The position numbers were made by a program, and so were the translations under genes. From IMG/VR virus record IMGVR_UViG_2740892488_000014: DNA of 30,859 nucleotides. One strand, written 5' to 3'. This stretch comes from a virus. Lineage: Duplodnaviria; Heunggongvirae; Uroviricota; Caudoviricetes. Positions 2,951 to 9,433 of the stretch are shown here, in pieces. The notes beneath the pieces are model-generated. The model ran no database searches and was not told the origin of the DNA. It was given only the letters and a program-made list of their open reading frames with translations. Position 1 is the stretch's first letter; each line of letters begins with the position of its first letter.

Positions 2951-3557
2951 TTACTTGCGTTTAAAAAGGTATTTTGTCACGACCAGCACGAGGCCGAATA
3001 CCTCTGTCAAAGTACCGCCCATGTACAACTGTAGTGTTAAATCCTCAAATTCCAGCTTACCTGCGCCGTCGGCAATAAATACACCATTCATTATCAGAAG
3101 TTGGAAAGCAAGGATAATCAGGAACCATTTCCCGTATCGTTTTTTTAGAGCGATTTCTGCTTCAAAATCTTTGTTGTTGAGTTGTTTGCGCTCATGCTCG
3201 GTATCAAGTGAATTCACCTGTTTCACAGATGTGAACTCGGTCAAGATTTTACTCTCAGTACGGGTGACTTGTTGAGAGGGTGTAGCAGTTGGAATTCTTT
3301 TGCTAGACGCAGCTACAGCCATTTTGCGAGCTTCGGCAGCTCTTTTTCTGGCTATTCCGCGAATACGGACAGCCGTTTTTTTTGGGGGCGTGCGAAACCT
3401 TTGGCTGAGGTGAAGCTTCGTCAGGAGACTGAACCGGAGTTTCATCGTCCTCCGGCTCAACCTCTTCTGCTAACTGACGGTGTAGGTTGAGGGAATCCTT
3501 CAGTCTGCGTGCTACTTCCTGTTTGAAACGGCTGTTAAAATCGTCATCCGATGGCAT
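2951..3557 (-). CDS. ~201-aa protein with a charged/acidic N-terminal region and two C-terminal TM helices, encoded immediately downstream of ImmA; frameshifted here in a homopolymer
   Basis: ORFs 3303..3557 and 2951..3460 (both minus) are consecutive parts of one reading frame. They join if the T8 run at ~3376-3383 (A8 on the coding strand) is read as 7: ...HAPKK|TAVRIRG.... The TM segments are WFLIILAFQLLIMNGVFI and LTEVFGLVLVVTKYLF. Confidence 0.6.
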
Positions 3558-3566
3558 TTTAAAGCG

Positions 3567-4056
3567 TTACCCCAACCTCAAGTTCTTTAAACGATAAGTC
3601 ATCGCATCGTCAGATACGCCAAAATAATGCGCCATTATATAACTTGGTTGACCGTCAGCGTGCAGTTTTCTGACCTCATCTACCGGCATCAGAAGTTCTG
3701 CTGCGAACTTGTTTGCAAAAATTTCATCAGGATGCGTTCCGGCGCTTGCGGTTTCGCCACGTAAATCAACGTACTCATATTCATCGCTATGCGATGCTTG
3801 CCGGGCGATGTAATGCCCCAACTCATGCCCACATGAAAAAACGTTGACGAACTTTGTTGTCATCACTGTTTAGAAAGATCGCTGGATCTTGATCTTTTTG
3901 TTTAATCAGTGCGCCAGAAACTTTCCCAGGAAGATCGGTAATAAAAACATCTAATCCCATGTCGTGAGCAATTTTCGCTGGATCAACAGGGAAACCACGC
4001 CCGCACCAGAACGTGTCCAGCACTCGCCGGGCGTGCTCTCTTGGGTTGGTAGCCAT
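3567..4056 (-). CDS. ImmA/IrrE-family (COG2856, M78-like) Zn-metallopeptidase with a HEXXH motif; frameshifted here in a homopolymer
   Basis: ORF 3823..4056 is an N-terminal domain of the kind found in ImmA anti-repressor proteases. ORF 3567..3866 carries HELGH plus a downstream E, i.e. the catalytic domain. The two join as ...VRQRFSCGHELGHY... if the 6-nt run at ~3836-3841 is read as 5. Confidence 0.8.
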
Positions 4057-5574: not shown

Positions 5575-5581
5575 TGACCAT

Positions 5582-5610
5582 AAACGGTTTAATCCCCTAT
5601 AAAACCGTTT
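5582..5610 (+). terminator. Inverted repeat AAACGGTTT-N11-AAACCGTTT 8 nt after the stop of the 4933..5574 gene; weak terminator or binding site
   Basis: 9-bp arms read from the sequence, followed by AATAAAATT. Confidence 0.35.
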
Positions 5611-5667
5611 AATAAAATTCACGACGTGAATATAATTGTTCATTATTCCCTCATTGTATTTGGCGTT

Positions 5668-5699
5668 ATGACAAATGCCATAAAATACTGTATAAATAT
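5668..5699 (+). promoter_or_regulatory. Rightward sigma70-like promoter (-35 ATGACA, 17-nt spacer, -10 TATAAA) overlapping the left half of a LexA box that is split by the ISL3 insertion
   Basis: Joining 5699 to 7593 reconstitutes TACTGTATAAATATACAGGT, i.e. CTGT-N8-ACAG with the TA-rich centre of the E. coli SOS-box consensus TACTGTATATATATACAGTA. The -10 overlaps the box. Confidence 0.6.
5692..5699. repeat. Target-site duplication ATAAATAT, left copy
   Basis: An identical 8-mer directly flanks both ends of the ISL3 element. ISL3-family elements make 8-bp TSDs. Confidence 0.8.
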
Positions 5700-5727
5700 G
5701 GGTCTTCCCCGATCATGGTGGGAAGAC

Positions 5728-6948
5728 TCAGTACGCCATATTCAGTTTCCCATAGTGGAACATAACTCCCAGTTTAAAGCGTTCCCGGTTTCGGTATCCC
5801 CTGGCCTTTATCCTCAGCAGTCTGATCTTGCTGTTCAGCGCCTCCGCATTTCCATTCGAGACGCGATGACGCATTGCATTCAGTATTCCGTATAACCGTT
5901 TTTTAATGGTTTTCGCTGCGTTTTTCATCATCGGCACATCACATTCAGACGCCAGCGATATCCACTGCAACCAGTCATTCCTGCGTTCTGTGCTCCAGGG
6001 GCGATCCCAGATATTTTTTGCCAGCTCTTTCAGTGTCCAGCACTGGCTTGTCTGTTGCATCTGTTCCCGCAACCACATCAGCTTTTCCTGCCGGGACTCA
6101 GTCATCCATTTGTCGCTGTACTGCCACAGGAAGCGGGTACCTTTGGCCTGACGACGACTTTCAACAGGGAGGTGCGGATGTTCATTCTGGCGGGTTTTAT
6201 CAACCACTTCGCCCAGTTGCTTCGCCACATGGAAGCGATCGAAGGCGATTTTCTCGACCGCATTGGGTAAATGGATACGCGCTGCTCTTATATAGCCCGC
6301 ATTCATGTCCATCGACAGTGTTTTGATGGCCAACAACTGACTGTCAGTAAGCGAACGGAGATAGCTGGCAAGACTCTCTGTGCCACGATCATCGGTTAAT
6401 GCCAGTGCCCGCCCGTCGCGATCAGATACCACGGTTATATACCTATGCCCTTTTTTAAAGGCGACTTCGTCTACATTCATATGACGCACTGATAAAGGCT
6501 TTTTAATCCGCGACAGGCCTCGCTTAACCGCGCGGGTCATGATGCCGTCAACGGCATTCCAGCTAAGTTTAAGTTGTTTTCTGACCGCATCAACGGTGCT
6601 GATTTTAAGCCATGAGAGCACGAACGATTCGAACAGCAGAGTGTACCGACTGCCGGAACCTGCCCACGGTACAGGCAGAGTCTGGCAGCCATGCTCCGGG
6701 CACATAACGCGGGGAACATCGGCTTCTACTAATGTCATGAACTGGCAGGTATCAAGGTGGCGCCATTTACGATGTCGGTGATCGTGAACAGAACAGGATT
6801 TCCTGCAGGTCGGACAGGTTAACTGAGTATTTTCAGCAATTCCGACTGTAACAGTAACGGAACCTGCATTTTCATCGAGGGTAAGGGATTTAACCTGCCA
6901 TGGTGCAGTCAGGTTAAGGATATGGGCATAGAGGGATTTTTCGTCCAT
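5728..6948 (-). CDS. ISL3-family transposase, 406 aa
   Basis: N-terminal Zn-ribbon (CPTCRKSC...CPEHGC) plus DDE domain, typical of the IS204/IS1001/IS1096/IS1165 (ISL3) family. Confidence 0.95.
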   Translation of the reverse strand: MDEKSLYAHILNLTAPWQVKSLTLDENAGSVTVTVGIAENTQLTCPTCRKSCSVHDHRHRKWRHLDTCQFMTLVEADVPRVMCPEHGCQTLPVPWAGSGSRYTLLFESFVLSWLKISTVDAVRKQLKLSWNAVDGIMTRAVKRGLSRIKKPLSVRHMNVDEVAFKKGHRYITVVSDRDGRALALTDDRGTESLASYLRSLTDSQLLAIKTLSMDMNAGYIRAARIHLPNAVEKIAFDRFHVAKQLGEVVDKTRQNEHPHLPVESRRQAKGTRFLWQYSDKWMTESRQEKLMWLREQMQQTSQCWTLKELAKNIWDRPWSTERRNDWLQWISLASECDVPMMKNAAKTIKKRLYGILNAMRHRVSNGNAEALNSKIRLLRIKARGYRNRERFKLGVMFHYGKLNMAY

Positions 6949-6966
6949 ATAATTTCATTCTGAAGC

Positions 6967-7485
6967 TTACTTTAAACTGATATTATTATTTTTTGCCCAC
7001 TTTCTTAATCTTCCATTAGCGTTGGCGTAAGGCGAAGATGTGTTAAATGAGATCATTCTCCCCATCGTCCATTTTGTGTACCATGGTCTTCCATACAAAA
7101 TATCATCGGTACGATCATTAATAAGGTTCACAATCTCATTTTTTACAGTCTGAAGTTCAGCTACTAACAACTCATAACTTAACTCACTGTAATCTGAGTA
7201 AAATTTTTGAGCAAGAAGGCCAAGCTGATTCCATTTATAGCCAGTTTCCGGAAAATCGACAGGCAGACCTTTAGCATCAGAAGCGATCCACTTTACAACA
7301 AGAGCATTCCATCCAAGCAGATACGAAACGAGATCACGAACACTCATCTCCGTTCCTTTGGCGTGTCCGTCCATTGATTTATCTGAAGTAATTTCTGGTG
7401 GGATTGTGTTGAGGTAACTAATTAATTTACTAAAATTTTTATCAATAGCTAAAAGCAGTTCAGCTTTTGTTTGCGGCACACTCAT
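6967..7485 (-). CDS. ClbS/DfsB-family (DUF1706) four-helix-bundle protein, 172 aa, carried as passenger of the ISL3 element
   Basis: Length and motifs such as ...KAELLLAIDKNFSKL..., ...DFPETGYKWNQLG... and ...YGRPWYTKWTMGRMI... recall the ClbS colibactin self-resistance family (from memory). It has its own SD GAGGG. Confidence 0.55.
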   Translation of the reverse strand: MSVPQTKAELLLAIDKNFSKLISYLNTIPPEITSDKSMDGHAKGTEMSVRDLVSYLLGWNALVVKWIASDAKGLPVDFPETGYKWNQLGLLAQKFYSDYSELSYELLVAELQTVKNEIVNLINDRTDDILYGRPWYTKWTMGRMISFNTSSPYANANGRLRKWAKNNNISLK

Positions 7486-7584
7486 AAGAATTCCCTCTCA
7501 TGTAAAAAGAGACACCATAAAGGTACTGTGTGGTGTTTGAAAATCGCTCAATTATGTACCACCCACCACAACAGGGGAAGACCC

Positions 7585-7598
7585 ATAAATATACAGGT
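7585..7598 (+). promoter_or_regulatory. Right TSD copy ATAAATAT plus right half ACAGGT of the split LexA box
   Basis: See the reconstruction under the promoter feature at 5668..5699. Confidence 0.6.
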
Positions 7599-7618
7599 TG
7601 TGGCATTGGGGGGAAGAC

Positions 7619-7798
7619 ATGAATATTCAAGAATCTATAGGCGAACTACCGGAAACATGCCGGGCTGTTATCAAGCGTAAGGACGGACACATCGTTGGTG
7701 TGCGTGTTCTGACCGATGATGAGCGGATTGCCAGCCTGATGGCGTTTCTCGAGTTGGCAGAAATAGCTGGATATACTATTACACCCCCTGACGCGTAA
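7619..7798 (+). CDS. Small protein (59 aa) of unknown function, first gene downstream of the disrupted LexA-controlled promoter
   Basis: ATG at 7619 with a purine-rich SD GGGGGGAAGAC. The track ORF 7598..7798 uses an upstream TTG. No family recognised. Confidence 0.55.
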   Translation: MNIQESIGELPETCRAVIKRKDGHIVGVRVLTDDERIASLMAFLELAEIAGYTITPPDA

Positions 7799-7875: not shown

Positions 7876-8472
7876 ATGGCGCAGCATTCATTTATCAGGG
7901 TATCCGGCGGTTCGCTAATACCCGCGACACCAGACACGCAACGCTGGTTGACTGAACGAGTCAAACCAGGTGCTGTTGTGTATGCAGATTTCAAACAGGC
8001 GCGTAATCCCGCGTTTCATCGTAAATTTTTCTCACTTCTCAACCTGGGCTTTGATTACTGGCATCCGTCCGGAGGGGCTATTTCTCCTGCGGAGCGCGAA
8101 CTGGTTCACGGCTACGTTAAGTTACTGGCGTATTACGGTGGACACGGTGATGTCATGGCAGAGCTGGCTGATCAGTATCTTCTCGATGAGTCGGAAAAGC
8201 GCGCGGGGAGTATCAGTGCGGTGAAGTCGTTCGAGGCGTTTCGCGCATGGGCGATTATGGAAGCTGGGTTTTATGACGTTCATCAGATGCCAGACGGCAG
8301 TTTGATGCGCGTACCTCGTTCAATCTCGTTTGCAGCGATGGACGATCTTGAGTTCGGTCAACTGTATTCAGCCGTTTTAGATGTGCTGTGGAATTATATT
8401 TTGTTCCGCACATTTGCCTCTCAGGAGGCCGCTGAAAATGCCGCCGCGCAGCTGCTGGATTACACATCATGA
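7876..8472 (+). CDS. Phage nin-region protein, NinB-like/DUF1367-type, 198 aa
   Basis: N-terminal pattern ...VVYADFKQARNPAFHRKFFSLLNLG... resembles lambda NinB ...VVTIQERNRSLDQNRKLWACLGDVS.... It sits immediately upstream of a YbcO-like gene and Q. Confidence 0.5.
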   Translation: MAQHSFIRVSGGSLIPATPDTQRWLTERVKPGAVVYADFKQARNPAFHRKFFSLLNLGFDYWHPSGGAISPAERELVHGYVKLLAYYGGHGDVMAELADQYLLDESEKRAGSISAVKSFEAFRAWAIMEAGFYDVHQMPDGSLMRVPRSISFAAMDDLEFGQLYSAVLDVLWNYILFRTFASQEAAENAAAQLLDYTS

Positions 8473-8762
8473 AAAAAATCGACCTGAGAAAAGCTGCACG
8501 CAGTCGCGCTTGTACTGTGCGTATCCCCGGTGTGTGCAATCACAATCCTGAAACCAGCGTACTGGCTCATTATCGTCTCGCCGGAACGTGCGGCACAGCC
8601 ATCAAACCTCACGATATGCAGGGCGCTATCGCCTGCAGTGCGTGTCACGATGCCATCGACGGACGTACAAAAACGGATTACGAGCACGACTCATTGTTGT
8701 TGATGCACGCTGAGGGAGTTTTCAGAACACTGGCTATCTGGCGCGATGAGGAGTTTATCTGA
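8469..8762 (+). CDS. ybcO: YbcO-like (DUF1364) putative phage nuclease, 97 aa
   Basis: DLRKAAR..C.VRIPGVCN.NPETSVLAH.RL.G.CGT..KP.D..A.IACSACHD.ID.RT is collinear with E. coli DLP12 YbcO. Its ATGA overlaps the upstream gene. Confidence 0.8.
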   Translation: MKKIDLRKAARSRACTVRIPGVCNHNPETSVLAHYRLAGTCGTAIKPHDMQGAIACSACHDAIDGRTKTDYEHDSLLLMHAEGVFRTLAIWRDEEFI

Positions 8763-9433
8763 TGAGTAACGAGTATTTATTGGAATATACCCGCATAAAA
8801 CTGCGCGCTGCATTGCGGGATTTGTCTGGTGGTTCTAAGGGGCAACTGGAAGCATTGTGTGAGCACCCACCGGCAGACAAAAACGCATACCCACGCAAAC
8901 ATATTCACCGTGTGCAGCTGGAGGACCGGACCGTTGATGCTCTGGTTACGCCAGTTTACGCTCTGGAAAGTTTCAGCAGACGTCGCCCCGCGCCGCCGAT
9001 GAGTGATTTTGAATTTGCTGATTCATCCTGGCGGCGTTCTGTGAACTCGCTGGATGCAAGTCAGCAAGCGTGGTTGCGTTATTGCTACGGTGGTAACCTG
9101 GCATTCAAACACCAAACAGCTATTTGTGAGGCTGTCTGGAGTCGCTATAAAGGAAACATCCCCGCGTCAACTCAGAGAAAAGTAGTTAAGCGCCTGCTTT
9201 CGTTGGTGTGGTTGTCCGTGCAGGCGGTCGCAGCAGCAAATAAACGCGAGGATTTTAAGGAGATGGCCGGATCTACCCTAGCAGGAATGCTGTCGGTTTC
9301 TCGTTCCACCTGGTGCGAAACATACTCCCTGCACTGGGTAGGAATGAAAGAGGCGGTGAGAGCACTTGATGAAGTGGCACTTCTTGCAACTTTGCATCAT
9401 TATCAGAACCATTTAGACGACGTTTGCGTATAA
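8762..9433 (+). CDS. Phage late-gene antitermination protein Q (Phage_antitermQ family), 223 aa
   Basis: Size, position (last nin-region gene before the lysis genes) and sequence features of the antiterminator-Q family, with a PR'/tR'-like promoter region downstream. Confidence 0.8.
   Translation: MSNEYLLEYTRIKLRAALRDLSGGSKGQLEALCEHPPADKNAYPRKHIHRVQLEDRTVDALVTPVYALESFSRRRPAPPMSDFEFADSSWRRSVNSLDASQQAWLRYCYGGNLAFKHQTAICEAVWSRYKGNIPASTQRKVVKRLLSLVWLSVQAVAAANKREDFKEMAGSTLAGMLSVSRSTWCETYSLHWVGMKEAVRALDEVALLATLHHYQNHLDDVCV

Follow-up and report, generated by a model that had tools for sequence, protein, structure and literature searches.

The window, a stretch of 30,859 nucleotides of a tailed virus (Caudoviricetes; IMG/VR record IMGVR_UViG_2740892488_000014), carries ISEc55, an insertion sequence (IS) of the ISL3 family, just in front of a small phage gene for a 59-aa protein, which is followed by a run of genes that ends with the antiterminator gene Q. 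ISEc55 belongs to a clade comprising ISEc53, ISKox3, ISCfr12 and relatives with the end GGGTCTTCCC...TGGTGG, and the sequence comparisons described here indicate that members of this clade very probably insert into LexA operators, the insertion in the window included. The direct repeat ATAAATAT of 8 bp, which consists of A/T to 100%, stands on both sides of the element as its target-site duplication (TSD), and each copy is continued outward by one half of a predicted LexA operator:

5700 to 7584, minus strand: ISEc55, an ISL3 insertion sequence of the ISEc53 family, 1885 bp (boundaries from reading of the sequence and from a script, name from PMC7671891)
5686 to 5699, plus strand: left half of the split predicted LexA operator, TACTGT followed by TSD copy 1 (ATAAATAT, 5692 to 5699)
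7585 to 7598, plus strand: right half of the split predicted LexA operator, TSD copy 2 (ATAAATAT, 7585 to 7592) followed by ACAGGT

A scan of the window as it stands, with the insertion sequence present, finds no CTGT-N8-ACAG box. When the element and one copy of the repeat are deleted in silico, the sequence TACTGTATAAATATACAGGT results, which is the sole CTGT-N8-ACAG in the reconstructed window. The textbook consensus of LexA operators is TACTG(TA)5CAGTA, with which TACTGTATAAATATACAGGT agrees at 17 of 20 positions, a value equalled by none of 100 shuffles of the region. The palindrome, the AT-rich spacer and the conservation of the half-sites make TACTGTATAAATATACAGGT a genuine-looking LexA (SOS) operator. 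Natural empty sites are also available. EC958, JJ1886 and many further genomes contain the 1008-bp reconstructed empty site with 100% identity, and at least 80% of it is covered in 419 complete Escherichia coli genomes, mainly of sequence type 131 (ST131). The junction in EC958 reads ...AATACTGTATAAATATACAGGTTG... and contains the 8-mer once, and in the empty site the end of the box lies 20 nt from the ATG of the 59-aa gene. An initial annotation of this DNA had taken the 8-bp duplication for the N8 spacer of a LexA-type box and had proposed beforehand that relatives without the IS should keep the box intact; the reconstruction and the natural empty sites agree with the first claim, and EC958, JJ1886 and others do possess the intact TACTGTATAAATATACAGGT. 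Moreover, CTGT and ACAG are retained in six loci of other E. coli prophages that have a 59-aa gene of about 75% identity and diverged flanks. One relative (L197:2440-2470) shows a deletion of 2 bp in the spacer, giving CTGT-ATATAT-ACAG with an N6 spacer. This deletion should inactivate the operator and would represent a second way to lose the box that is independent of any IS.

The same box has been hit repeatedly. The junction type of the window is common to 13 genomes (S65EC, S103EC, AR_0081 and others), while the same IS is found in the opposite orientation at the same site in 7 genomes (MNCRE44, KE54 and others). AVS0247 carries a different ISL3 relative at this site, an element of 1316 bp that has no cargo gene and is 94% identical to ISKox3. 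All three insertion types share the junction ...CTGTATAAATAT/IS/ATAAATATACAG..., and thus the same base pair and the same TSD ATAAATAT. There have been at least three independent insertions into one 20-bp site, and in the ST131 prophage genomes compared, the remainder of this operon, promoter and coding sequence alike, showed no insertions. The initial annotation had implicitly treated the insertion as a single accident, a view that is contradicted by these repeated strikes and by the register seen throughout the clade (see below). Altogether, the box is disrupted in about 5% of the prophage-carrying ST131 genomes, and such a share arising from at least three events suggests an ongoing, possibly selected, loss of prophage SOS inducibility.

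The flanks of further clade members were collected from two public collections with the pattern GGGTCTTCCCYKRTYRTGGTGG, which was taken from inside the terminal inverted repeat (IR) alone. As this pattern is wholly internal to the IR, the flanks are unable to bias the result. The search yielded 214 distinct 24-nt flanks from prophage contigs, plasmids and Enterobacterales genomes, with Erwinia, Pantoea, Rahnella, Yersinia, Providencia, Klebsiella, Kluyvera, Phytobacter, Scandinavium, Symbiopectobacterium and others among the sources. In 159 of the 214 flanks (74%), CTGT occupies precisely positions -12 to -9 relative to the IS end, compared to a background of 0.43%, and most of the flanks without an exact CTGT are one base off. 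The share of exact in-register CTGT amounts to 92% in viral contigs, 79% in other genomes and 46% in IS-swamped symbionts, and binomial p values for the enrichment range from 1e-46 to 1e-153. The flank logo reads A-T-A-CTGT-ATATATAT, directly followed by the IS, and mirroring it gives TACTGTATATATATACAGTA, which agrees with the LexA consensus at every one of the 20 positions, including the TA outside CTGT. The information content at positions -12 to -9 exceeds that of the AT-rich spacer. Of the complete copies, 27 have an intact 8-bp TSD, and 23 of these show both CTGT and ACAG; the 8-mer of an intact copy is the same to the left and right of the element and variable between sites. With respect to orientation, IRR points toward the adjacent gene at 35 sites and IRL at 25, a difference that is not significant.

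The genes next to the IS ends are SOS regulon genes. Among those that read outward from the ends, DinI was found 12 times and Peptidase_S24/UmuD-like proteins 11 times, and SulA, YdjM, SymE, a colicin, Hok and PurT (a yebG neighbour) are further cases. Two plasmids may illustrate the arrangement. In pUM146, the sequence TACTGT-ATATACAT/IS/ATATACAT-ACAGCA (site TACTGTATATACATACAGCA) lies in front of dinI-like-umuDC, and in an IncX3 blaNDM-5 plasmid (pNDM5) ISKox3 is embedded in TACTGT-ATATGCAT/ISKox3/ATATGCAT-ACAGCT (site TACTGTATATGCATACAGCT), with a 79-aa gene and then a truncated umuD-like S24 peptidase gene downstream. ISKox3 beside umuD is a recurring feature of IncX3 blaNDM plasmid maps.

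A different picture is seen in Candidatus Symbiopectobacterium, which has dozens of copies (L079, L090, L091, L107, L127, L130, L131, L147, L148, L167, L169, L187). Most of the complete copies with unequal flanks come from this symbiont. Many of its copies possess different 8-mers on their two sides with a half-box still present on each flank, which suggests recombination between copies residing in different LexA boxes and a resulting rearrangement of the genome. Apparent matches outside the phylum, in Chryseobacterium sp. 18061 (L128), Arthrobacter mobilis (L141), Vagococcus (L176) and a Chloroflexota metagenome-assembled genome (L164), were considered as cross-phylum spread and rejected, because sequence of 51% GC content or contigs of 1.4-1.7 kb make enterobacterial contamination or mislabelling probable. 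Such assemblies are uninformative on the choice between LexA-guided and intrinsic targeting, for which hosts with another LexA motif would have been of use. A match in Devosia has a variant IR and no box.

These observations can be combined in a simple model, in which the target is (TA)CTGT-N8(AT-rich)-ACAG(TA) and the two strand transfers would take place at the borders of the 8-bp spacer. Transfers at these borders would lead to duplication of the spacer and leave the CTGT and ACAG half-sites on either side of the element. The dyad symmetry of the target and the unbiased orientation point to recognition of both half-sites by a transposase dimer, which, we infer, would read them directly and would favour a spacer in which A and T alternate. 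That the transposase reads the DNA itself and does not need bound LexA is argued by the degenerate sites, that is, the fimB site described below, the ATGT and GTGT variants and the near-matches in symbionts.

Several points weigh against this model or limit its reach. About one quarter of the flanks lack an exact CTGT, mainly those from Symbiopectobacterium and Sodalis. The ISEc55 copy in fimB lies in a degenerate site, GTGT-ATATATAT-CCAT, with one near half-site and a duplication of 5 bp (ATATA) instead of 8, as seen by comparing EC958 (L072:1440-1500 and 3386-3445) with fimB of K-12 (L202); it is an atypical insertion for the clade. The specificity of the clade for LexA-type sites therefore appears strong but not absolute. 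Both the transposition into LexA boxes and the binding of LexA at TACTGTATAAATATACAGGT are deduced from sequence, and the data fit direct reading of the DNA as well as recruitment by bound LexA. The local regulatory effect is likewise deduced, with two candidate promoters to choose from (5609 to 5636 and 5668 to 5696), and the 59-aa protein, proposed below as a candidate antirepressor, is without similarity to known antirepressors (no BLASTP alignment; hhalign probability of 2.9% against GftA of Gifsy-2). Finally, the novelty of LexA-box targeting is judged from the open-access full-text literature.

As alternative to a specificity for LexA operators, it could be assumed that an ISL3 element with a loose AT preference fell by accident into the AT-rich centre of one box, in which case only the local effect would be of interest. 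A preference for AT-rich targets and duplications of 8 bp are commonly ascribed to ISL3 elements, and the completely A/T spacer in the window is in line with this preference. However, three independent strikes at one base pair, CTGT in exact register in nearly three quarters of unrelated flanks at a background below one half percent, and the higher information content of positions -12 to -9 relative to the spacer make a one-off accident extremely improbable; the collected copies do not descend from one ancestral locus either, as their flanks and TSDs differ. A related proposal would be that insertion is random and that selection retained those copies that silence SOS promoters of prophage induction genes or umuDC, with beneficial or neutral consequences. 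A host could plausibly gain from silencing the SOS trigger of a prophage, and the sites concern non-essential genes, but selection on expression is unable to enforce base-pair precision, and the TSD corresponds exactly to N8 in 23 of the 27 intact copies. The base-pair register thus means that selection after insertion is no explanation. As in addition both orientations are used and the remainder of the operon in the ST131 prophage showed no insertions, we regard this proposal as highly improbable. Still less can be said for the idea that CTGT and the 8-mer are parts of the element itself, in the form of longer inverted repeats, and that there is no LexA box. A 35-nt inverted repeat (5688 to 5722 and 7562 to 7596) does take in CTGT and the 8-mer, but this apparent extension of the IR arises because the target itself is palindromic; genomes without the IS hold the complete box with a single 8-mer, and the 8-mer varies by site and yet is the same on both sides of each copy. 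We consider this idea practically excluded.

More serious is the possibility that LexA guides the element, so that the transposase is recruited by operator-bound LexA or needs DNA shaped by it, which differs from the direct reading favoured above in mechanism alone. The sites that were struck are real SOS regulon operators, and conservation reaches the TA outside CTGT, as it does in the LexA consensus. Protein-dependent targeting has precedents in Tn5053-type "res hunters", which need a resolvase, and in Tn7, which needs TnsD/TnsE, and these lend the possibility some weight. On the other hand, insertions occur at sites expected to be poor for LexA, namely GTGT...CCAT in fimB and the ATGT, GTGT and TTGT variants, and many degenerate sites were found in symbiont genomes with dozens of copies. 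As judged from the known LexA-DNA complex, a LexA dimer on the operator is also expected to obstruct access to the strand-transfer positions, which lie between the half-sites. LexA guidance seems to us rather unlikely on this balance. An alternative that concerns the local consequence is de-repression, in which a promoter of the phage or of the IS would drive the module from the 59-aa gene to Q, or the IS genes, constitutively. The left junction retains the whole promoter-like region without the operator, and in the inverted copies, as in MNCRE44, this promoter would read the clbS-like and transposase genes in sense; within the IS, a weak promoter-like TTGAGG-16-TAAAAT (7409 to 7436, plus strand) faces the module. 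Transcripts would however have to cross 1.9 kb with two terminator-like hairpins on the plus strand (6030 to 6046 and 6587 to 6599), and a cell with constitutive Q or antirepressor expression would be expected either to die or to lose the prophage, yet the prophage is still there in full in the 13 and the 7 genomes with the two orientations of ISEc55. There is also no orientation bias across sites, and we regard local de-repression as doubtful. We therefore think that targeting of LexA operators, probably by direct reading of the DNA, is the best account of the insertions.

The element itself has a simple organization with two genes on the minus strand between imperfect terminal repeats, the latter matching at 19 of 23 positions:

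5700 to 5722, plus strand: IRL, the 23-nt terminal inverted repeat at the 3' end of the transposase gene, GGGTCTTCCCCGATCATGGTGGG
7562 to 7584, plus strand: IRR, the 23-nt terminal inverted repeat at the cargo end, CCCACCACAACAGGGGAAGACCC (complement: GGGTCTTCCCCTGTTGTGGTGGG)
5728 to 6948, minus strand: ISL3 transposase, 406 aa, with zinc ribbon, helix-turn-helix (HTH) and DDE domain (Pfam and NCBIfam)
6967 to 7485, minus strand: cargo gene, a ClbS/DfsB-family (DUF1706) four-helix-bundle protein of 172 aa; 18 nt separate it from the transposase gene downstream

In Pfam, the transposase matches DDE_Tnp_ISL3 (PF01610, 1.3e-58), PF13542 (2.9e-12) and PF14690 (3.3e-10), and it exceeds the cut-off of the NCBIfam model transpos_ISL3 (NF033550) with 6e-98. 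By the type of the transposase, the inverted repeats and the 8-bp TSD, the element is a member of the ISL3 family, as had already been assigned in the initial annotation. The span 5668 to 7620 given there is wider than the element, as it also takes in the promoter-like flank and the beginning of the ATG at 7619. All 1885 of 1885 bases are identical to the fimB copy of ST131 clade C (EC958, JJ1886 and others), which the NCBI annotation pipeline PGAP lists as "ISL3-like element ISEc53 family transposase" and ClbS/DfsB, and for which the name ISEc55 has been given (PMC7671891). The element in the window is a second ISEc55 copy in an ST131 chromosome. A ClbS-like gene that travels with an ISL3 transposase and is sited "near otherwise unrelated genes" has also been described recently (bioRxiv 10.1101/2025.11.17.686825).

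Copies of the ISEc53 type occur in about one third of complete E. coli genomes, and ISKox3-type copies in more than 1400 PLSDB plasmids. The members of the clade differ in a single cargo gene that is located between an IR and the transposase gene. Besides the ClbS-like protein of the 1885-bp form, this cargo can be a FosA-like protein of the glyoxalase family (1761 bp), a GNAT acetyltransferase (2600 bp) or an SH3-domain protein (1684 and 2109 bp), and a form without cargo has 1315-1316 bp (cargo genes at L105:2813-3214, L112:4656-5105, L099:1442-1792, L077:5662-6012 and window positions 6967 to 7485).

The box lies at the start of a phage operon, and the relevant features around it, all on the plus strand, are the following:

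5581 to 5611, plus strand: AT-rich hairpin TAAACGGTTTAAT-N5-ATAAAACCGTTTA after the upstream gene, a possible terminator before the SOS promoter region, conserved in relatives
5609 to 5636, plus strand: promoter-like TTAATA-16-TATAAT about 50 bp upstream of the box, with 10 of 12 consensus matches (promoter scan)
5668 to 5696, plus strand: promoter-like ATGACA-17-TATAAA of the initial annotation, overlapping the left half of the box, with ATGACA conserved in relatives
7609 to 7618, plus strand: ribosome-binding region of the 59-aa gene, GGGGGGAAGA(C), with a 9-nt resemblance to the IS end
7619 to 7798, plus strand: the 59-aa gene, first after the box (phrog_340, a family of unknown function)
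7876 to 8472, plus strand: DUF1367 gene (PHROG NinB/Orf-like), the first of the overlapping gene run 7876 to 9433
8469 to 8762, plus strand: YbcO nuclease gene, overlapping the DUF1367 gene and Q
8762 to 9433, plus strand: antiterminator Q

The gene order given in the initial annotation, that is, a small gene followed by NinB-like, YbcO-like and Q genes, is borne out by the domain and PHROG matches, and the positions agree with its statement that the insertion parts the operator halves and moves any upstream promoter 1.9 kb away from the genes. Its promoter assignment fares less clearly. The promoter scan did not call the proposed site with the -10 element TATAAA overlapping the box, as the conserved final T is missing from TATAAA (5691 to 5696), and prefers the sequence at 5609 to 5636. 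Two further suggestions did not hold. An outward promoter of the element is unsupported, since the promoter scan found no convincing one, both orientations occur at the site and the 35 versus 25 sites show no bias. The motif GGGGGGAAGAC before the ATG at 7619, which had been compared to the IS terminus, was considered as a targeting cue and rejected: it is native phage sequence in IS-free genomes, it lies in the ribosome-binding region, and relatives have GGGGGAAAT in its place. Across 207 flanks, 7-mers of the IR core are not enriched beside other copies (1 observed versus 1.8 expected), and the resemblance of GGGGGGAAGAC to the IS end is a coincidence.

In EC958, the prophage has a size of about 42 kb and is located between yecA and the tRNA-Leu/Cys/Gly cluster. 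Lambda-type repressors sense RecA via a self-cleavage domain. The presumed repressor in EC958 (L001:1924-2316) has 130 aa and contains HTH_3 alone, so that a self-cleavage (S24) domain is missing; YdaS-like and YdaT-like genes follow. A scan of the whole prophage found one good LexA-type box, and this is the box struck by the IS. As the repressor is not cleavable and this box is the only one, it most likely constitutes the SOS input of the prophage, as in Gifsy-type modules. LexA would no longer bind as a dimer to the split operator, and 1.9 kb now lie between the promoter region and the operon of the 59-aa, DUF1367, YbcO and Q genes; the insertion probably removes the DNA-damage inducibility of the module. 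The only other LexA-like candidate in the prophage, the weak match GACTGTTTCTTTAAAAAGAG, has 7 of 8 core bases and lies at the border of the tail sheath and tube genes (L203:18663-18682 in EC958); it is probably a chance sequence.

The 59-aa protein is, by its position, a candidate for an SOS-induced small regulator or antirepressor. Only 7 close and 16 distant homologues of it were recovered, and no match was found in Pfam or NCBIfam. A profile search of the PDB gave nothing credible, and its AlphaFold model (mean predicted local distance difference test, pLDDT, of 87) found no PDB match with E < 0.8 in Foldseek. A tblastn search of phage genomes returned one identical phage and two weak Stenotrophomonas matches. 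Two other genes in the vicinity may be mentioned in this context. About 1.6 kb upstream of the box, an ImmA/IrrE-type metallopeptidase (Peptidase_M78) is encoded next to a protein of 201 aa that is read from the other strand and is not assigned to any family (L001:11755-12858, corresponding to window positions of about 3570 to 4056 and upstream). ImmA-type proteases cleave repressors in some elements, and the Peptidase_M78 protein could provide another induction route. The gene for an ORF6N-domain protein of 262 aa (L001:7520-8308) has the replication genes on one side and the box on the other, with no LexA box in front of it; the ORF6N domain is common in phage antirepressor-like proteins.

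If members of the clade indeed recognize LexA operators, each transposition of these very common elements would rewire one SOS-controlled gene. Among the genes affected would be prophage induction modules, operons of error-prone polymerases (umuDC together with its analogues on plasmids), dinI, sulA and colicins. Such a specificity would explain the recurring "ISKox3-umuD" arrangement on blaNDM IncX3 plasmids as well as the presence of the clbS-like transposon at seemingly unrelated places. It would furthermore make these elements natural markers for functional LexA boxes and a simple system for understanding the recognition of a 16-bp palindrome by a DDE transposase that acts as a single protein. 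One may speculate further, although we consider it unlikely, that the ISEc53/ISKox3 clade is a dedicated editor of the SOS regulon that homes to LexA operators, the cue possibly being bound LexA or the SOS state. LexA boxes cluster on prophages and conjugative plasmids and would thereby offer the element safe landing sites as well as vehicles for spread. In that scenario, ISEc55 would shield its host doubly from genotoxin-triggered prophage induction, with the ClbS cargo neutralizing colibactin and the insertion cutting the connection from SOS to the prophage.

Within the open-access full-text literature, with ISfinder annotations outside this scope, ISKox3, ISEc53 and ISL3 are not linked to LexA or SOS boxes: no paper there mentions both ISKox3 and LexA, none of the papers listed for ISL3 together with LexA boxes mentions both, and the reports on the fimB copy, on ISKox3 beside umuD and on the ClbS-like cargo draw no connection from the insertion sites to LexA boxes. 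An IS directed to an operator that belongs to a global stress regulator appears to be new in that literature. Among LexA-controlled systems, the closest ones are the antirepressor operons of Gifsy-1/-2/-3 (Lemire et al. 2011, PMC3121763), Tum of phage 186 and AntC of N15. In Gifsy phages, the repressor is not cleavable and is inactivated by a small antirepressor, which is under the control of a LexA box located between the replication genes and Q; the LexA boxes are also preceded by terminator-like palindromes (PMC3121763). The prophage described here shares with them the short non-cleavable HTH repressor with RacR/YdaS/YdaT-like neighbours, the single box outside the immunity region between replication genes and Q, as on the Gifsy-2 map, the terminator-like palindrome before the box and the small open reading frame after it. 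Unlike in Gifsy, there is no dinI homologue or DinI domain in the operon, the small gene being directly followed by DUF1367-YbcO-Q, and the 59-aa protein resembles GftA neither in sequence nor by profile and is without a fold match.

With regard to the element, the kind of behaviour is itself known, as IS1397, ISKpn1, IS30, IS10, Tn7 and Tn5053 are all site-specific. Like IS1397 and ISKpn1 of the IS3 family and IS621-type elements at repetitive extragenic palindromes (REP) and bacterial interspersed mosaic elements (BIME), nearly all copies of the clade appear to reside at a fixed position in one class of short repeated palindromes. The target of those elements is a structural or extragenic repeat, whereas here it is the operator of a global regulator and the transposase is of the ISL3 type. 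With IS10/Tn10 (NGCTNAGCN) and IS30 (a 24-bp palindromic hot spot), the clade has in common a symmetric target, its probable reading by a transposase multimer, staggered cuts that would be centred on the dyad and the use of both orientations. The consensus sites of IS10 and IS30 are without a known host function, in contrast to the agreement with the LexA box at all 20 positions seen here, and in the present case the specific bases directly flank the 8 bp that are duplicated. Finally, the "res-site hunters" Tn5053/Tn402 and Tn7, the latter with TnsD at attTn7, are likewise directed to a protein-binding or conserved functional site, and these sites are often found on plasmids, which favours horizontal spread. 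Those transposons need targeting proteins or a site-bound resolvase, whereas the element described here encodes one transposase.

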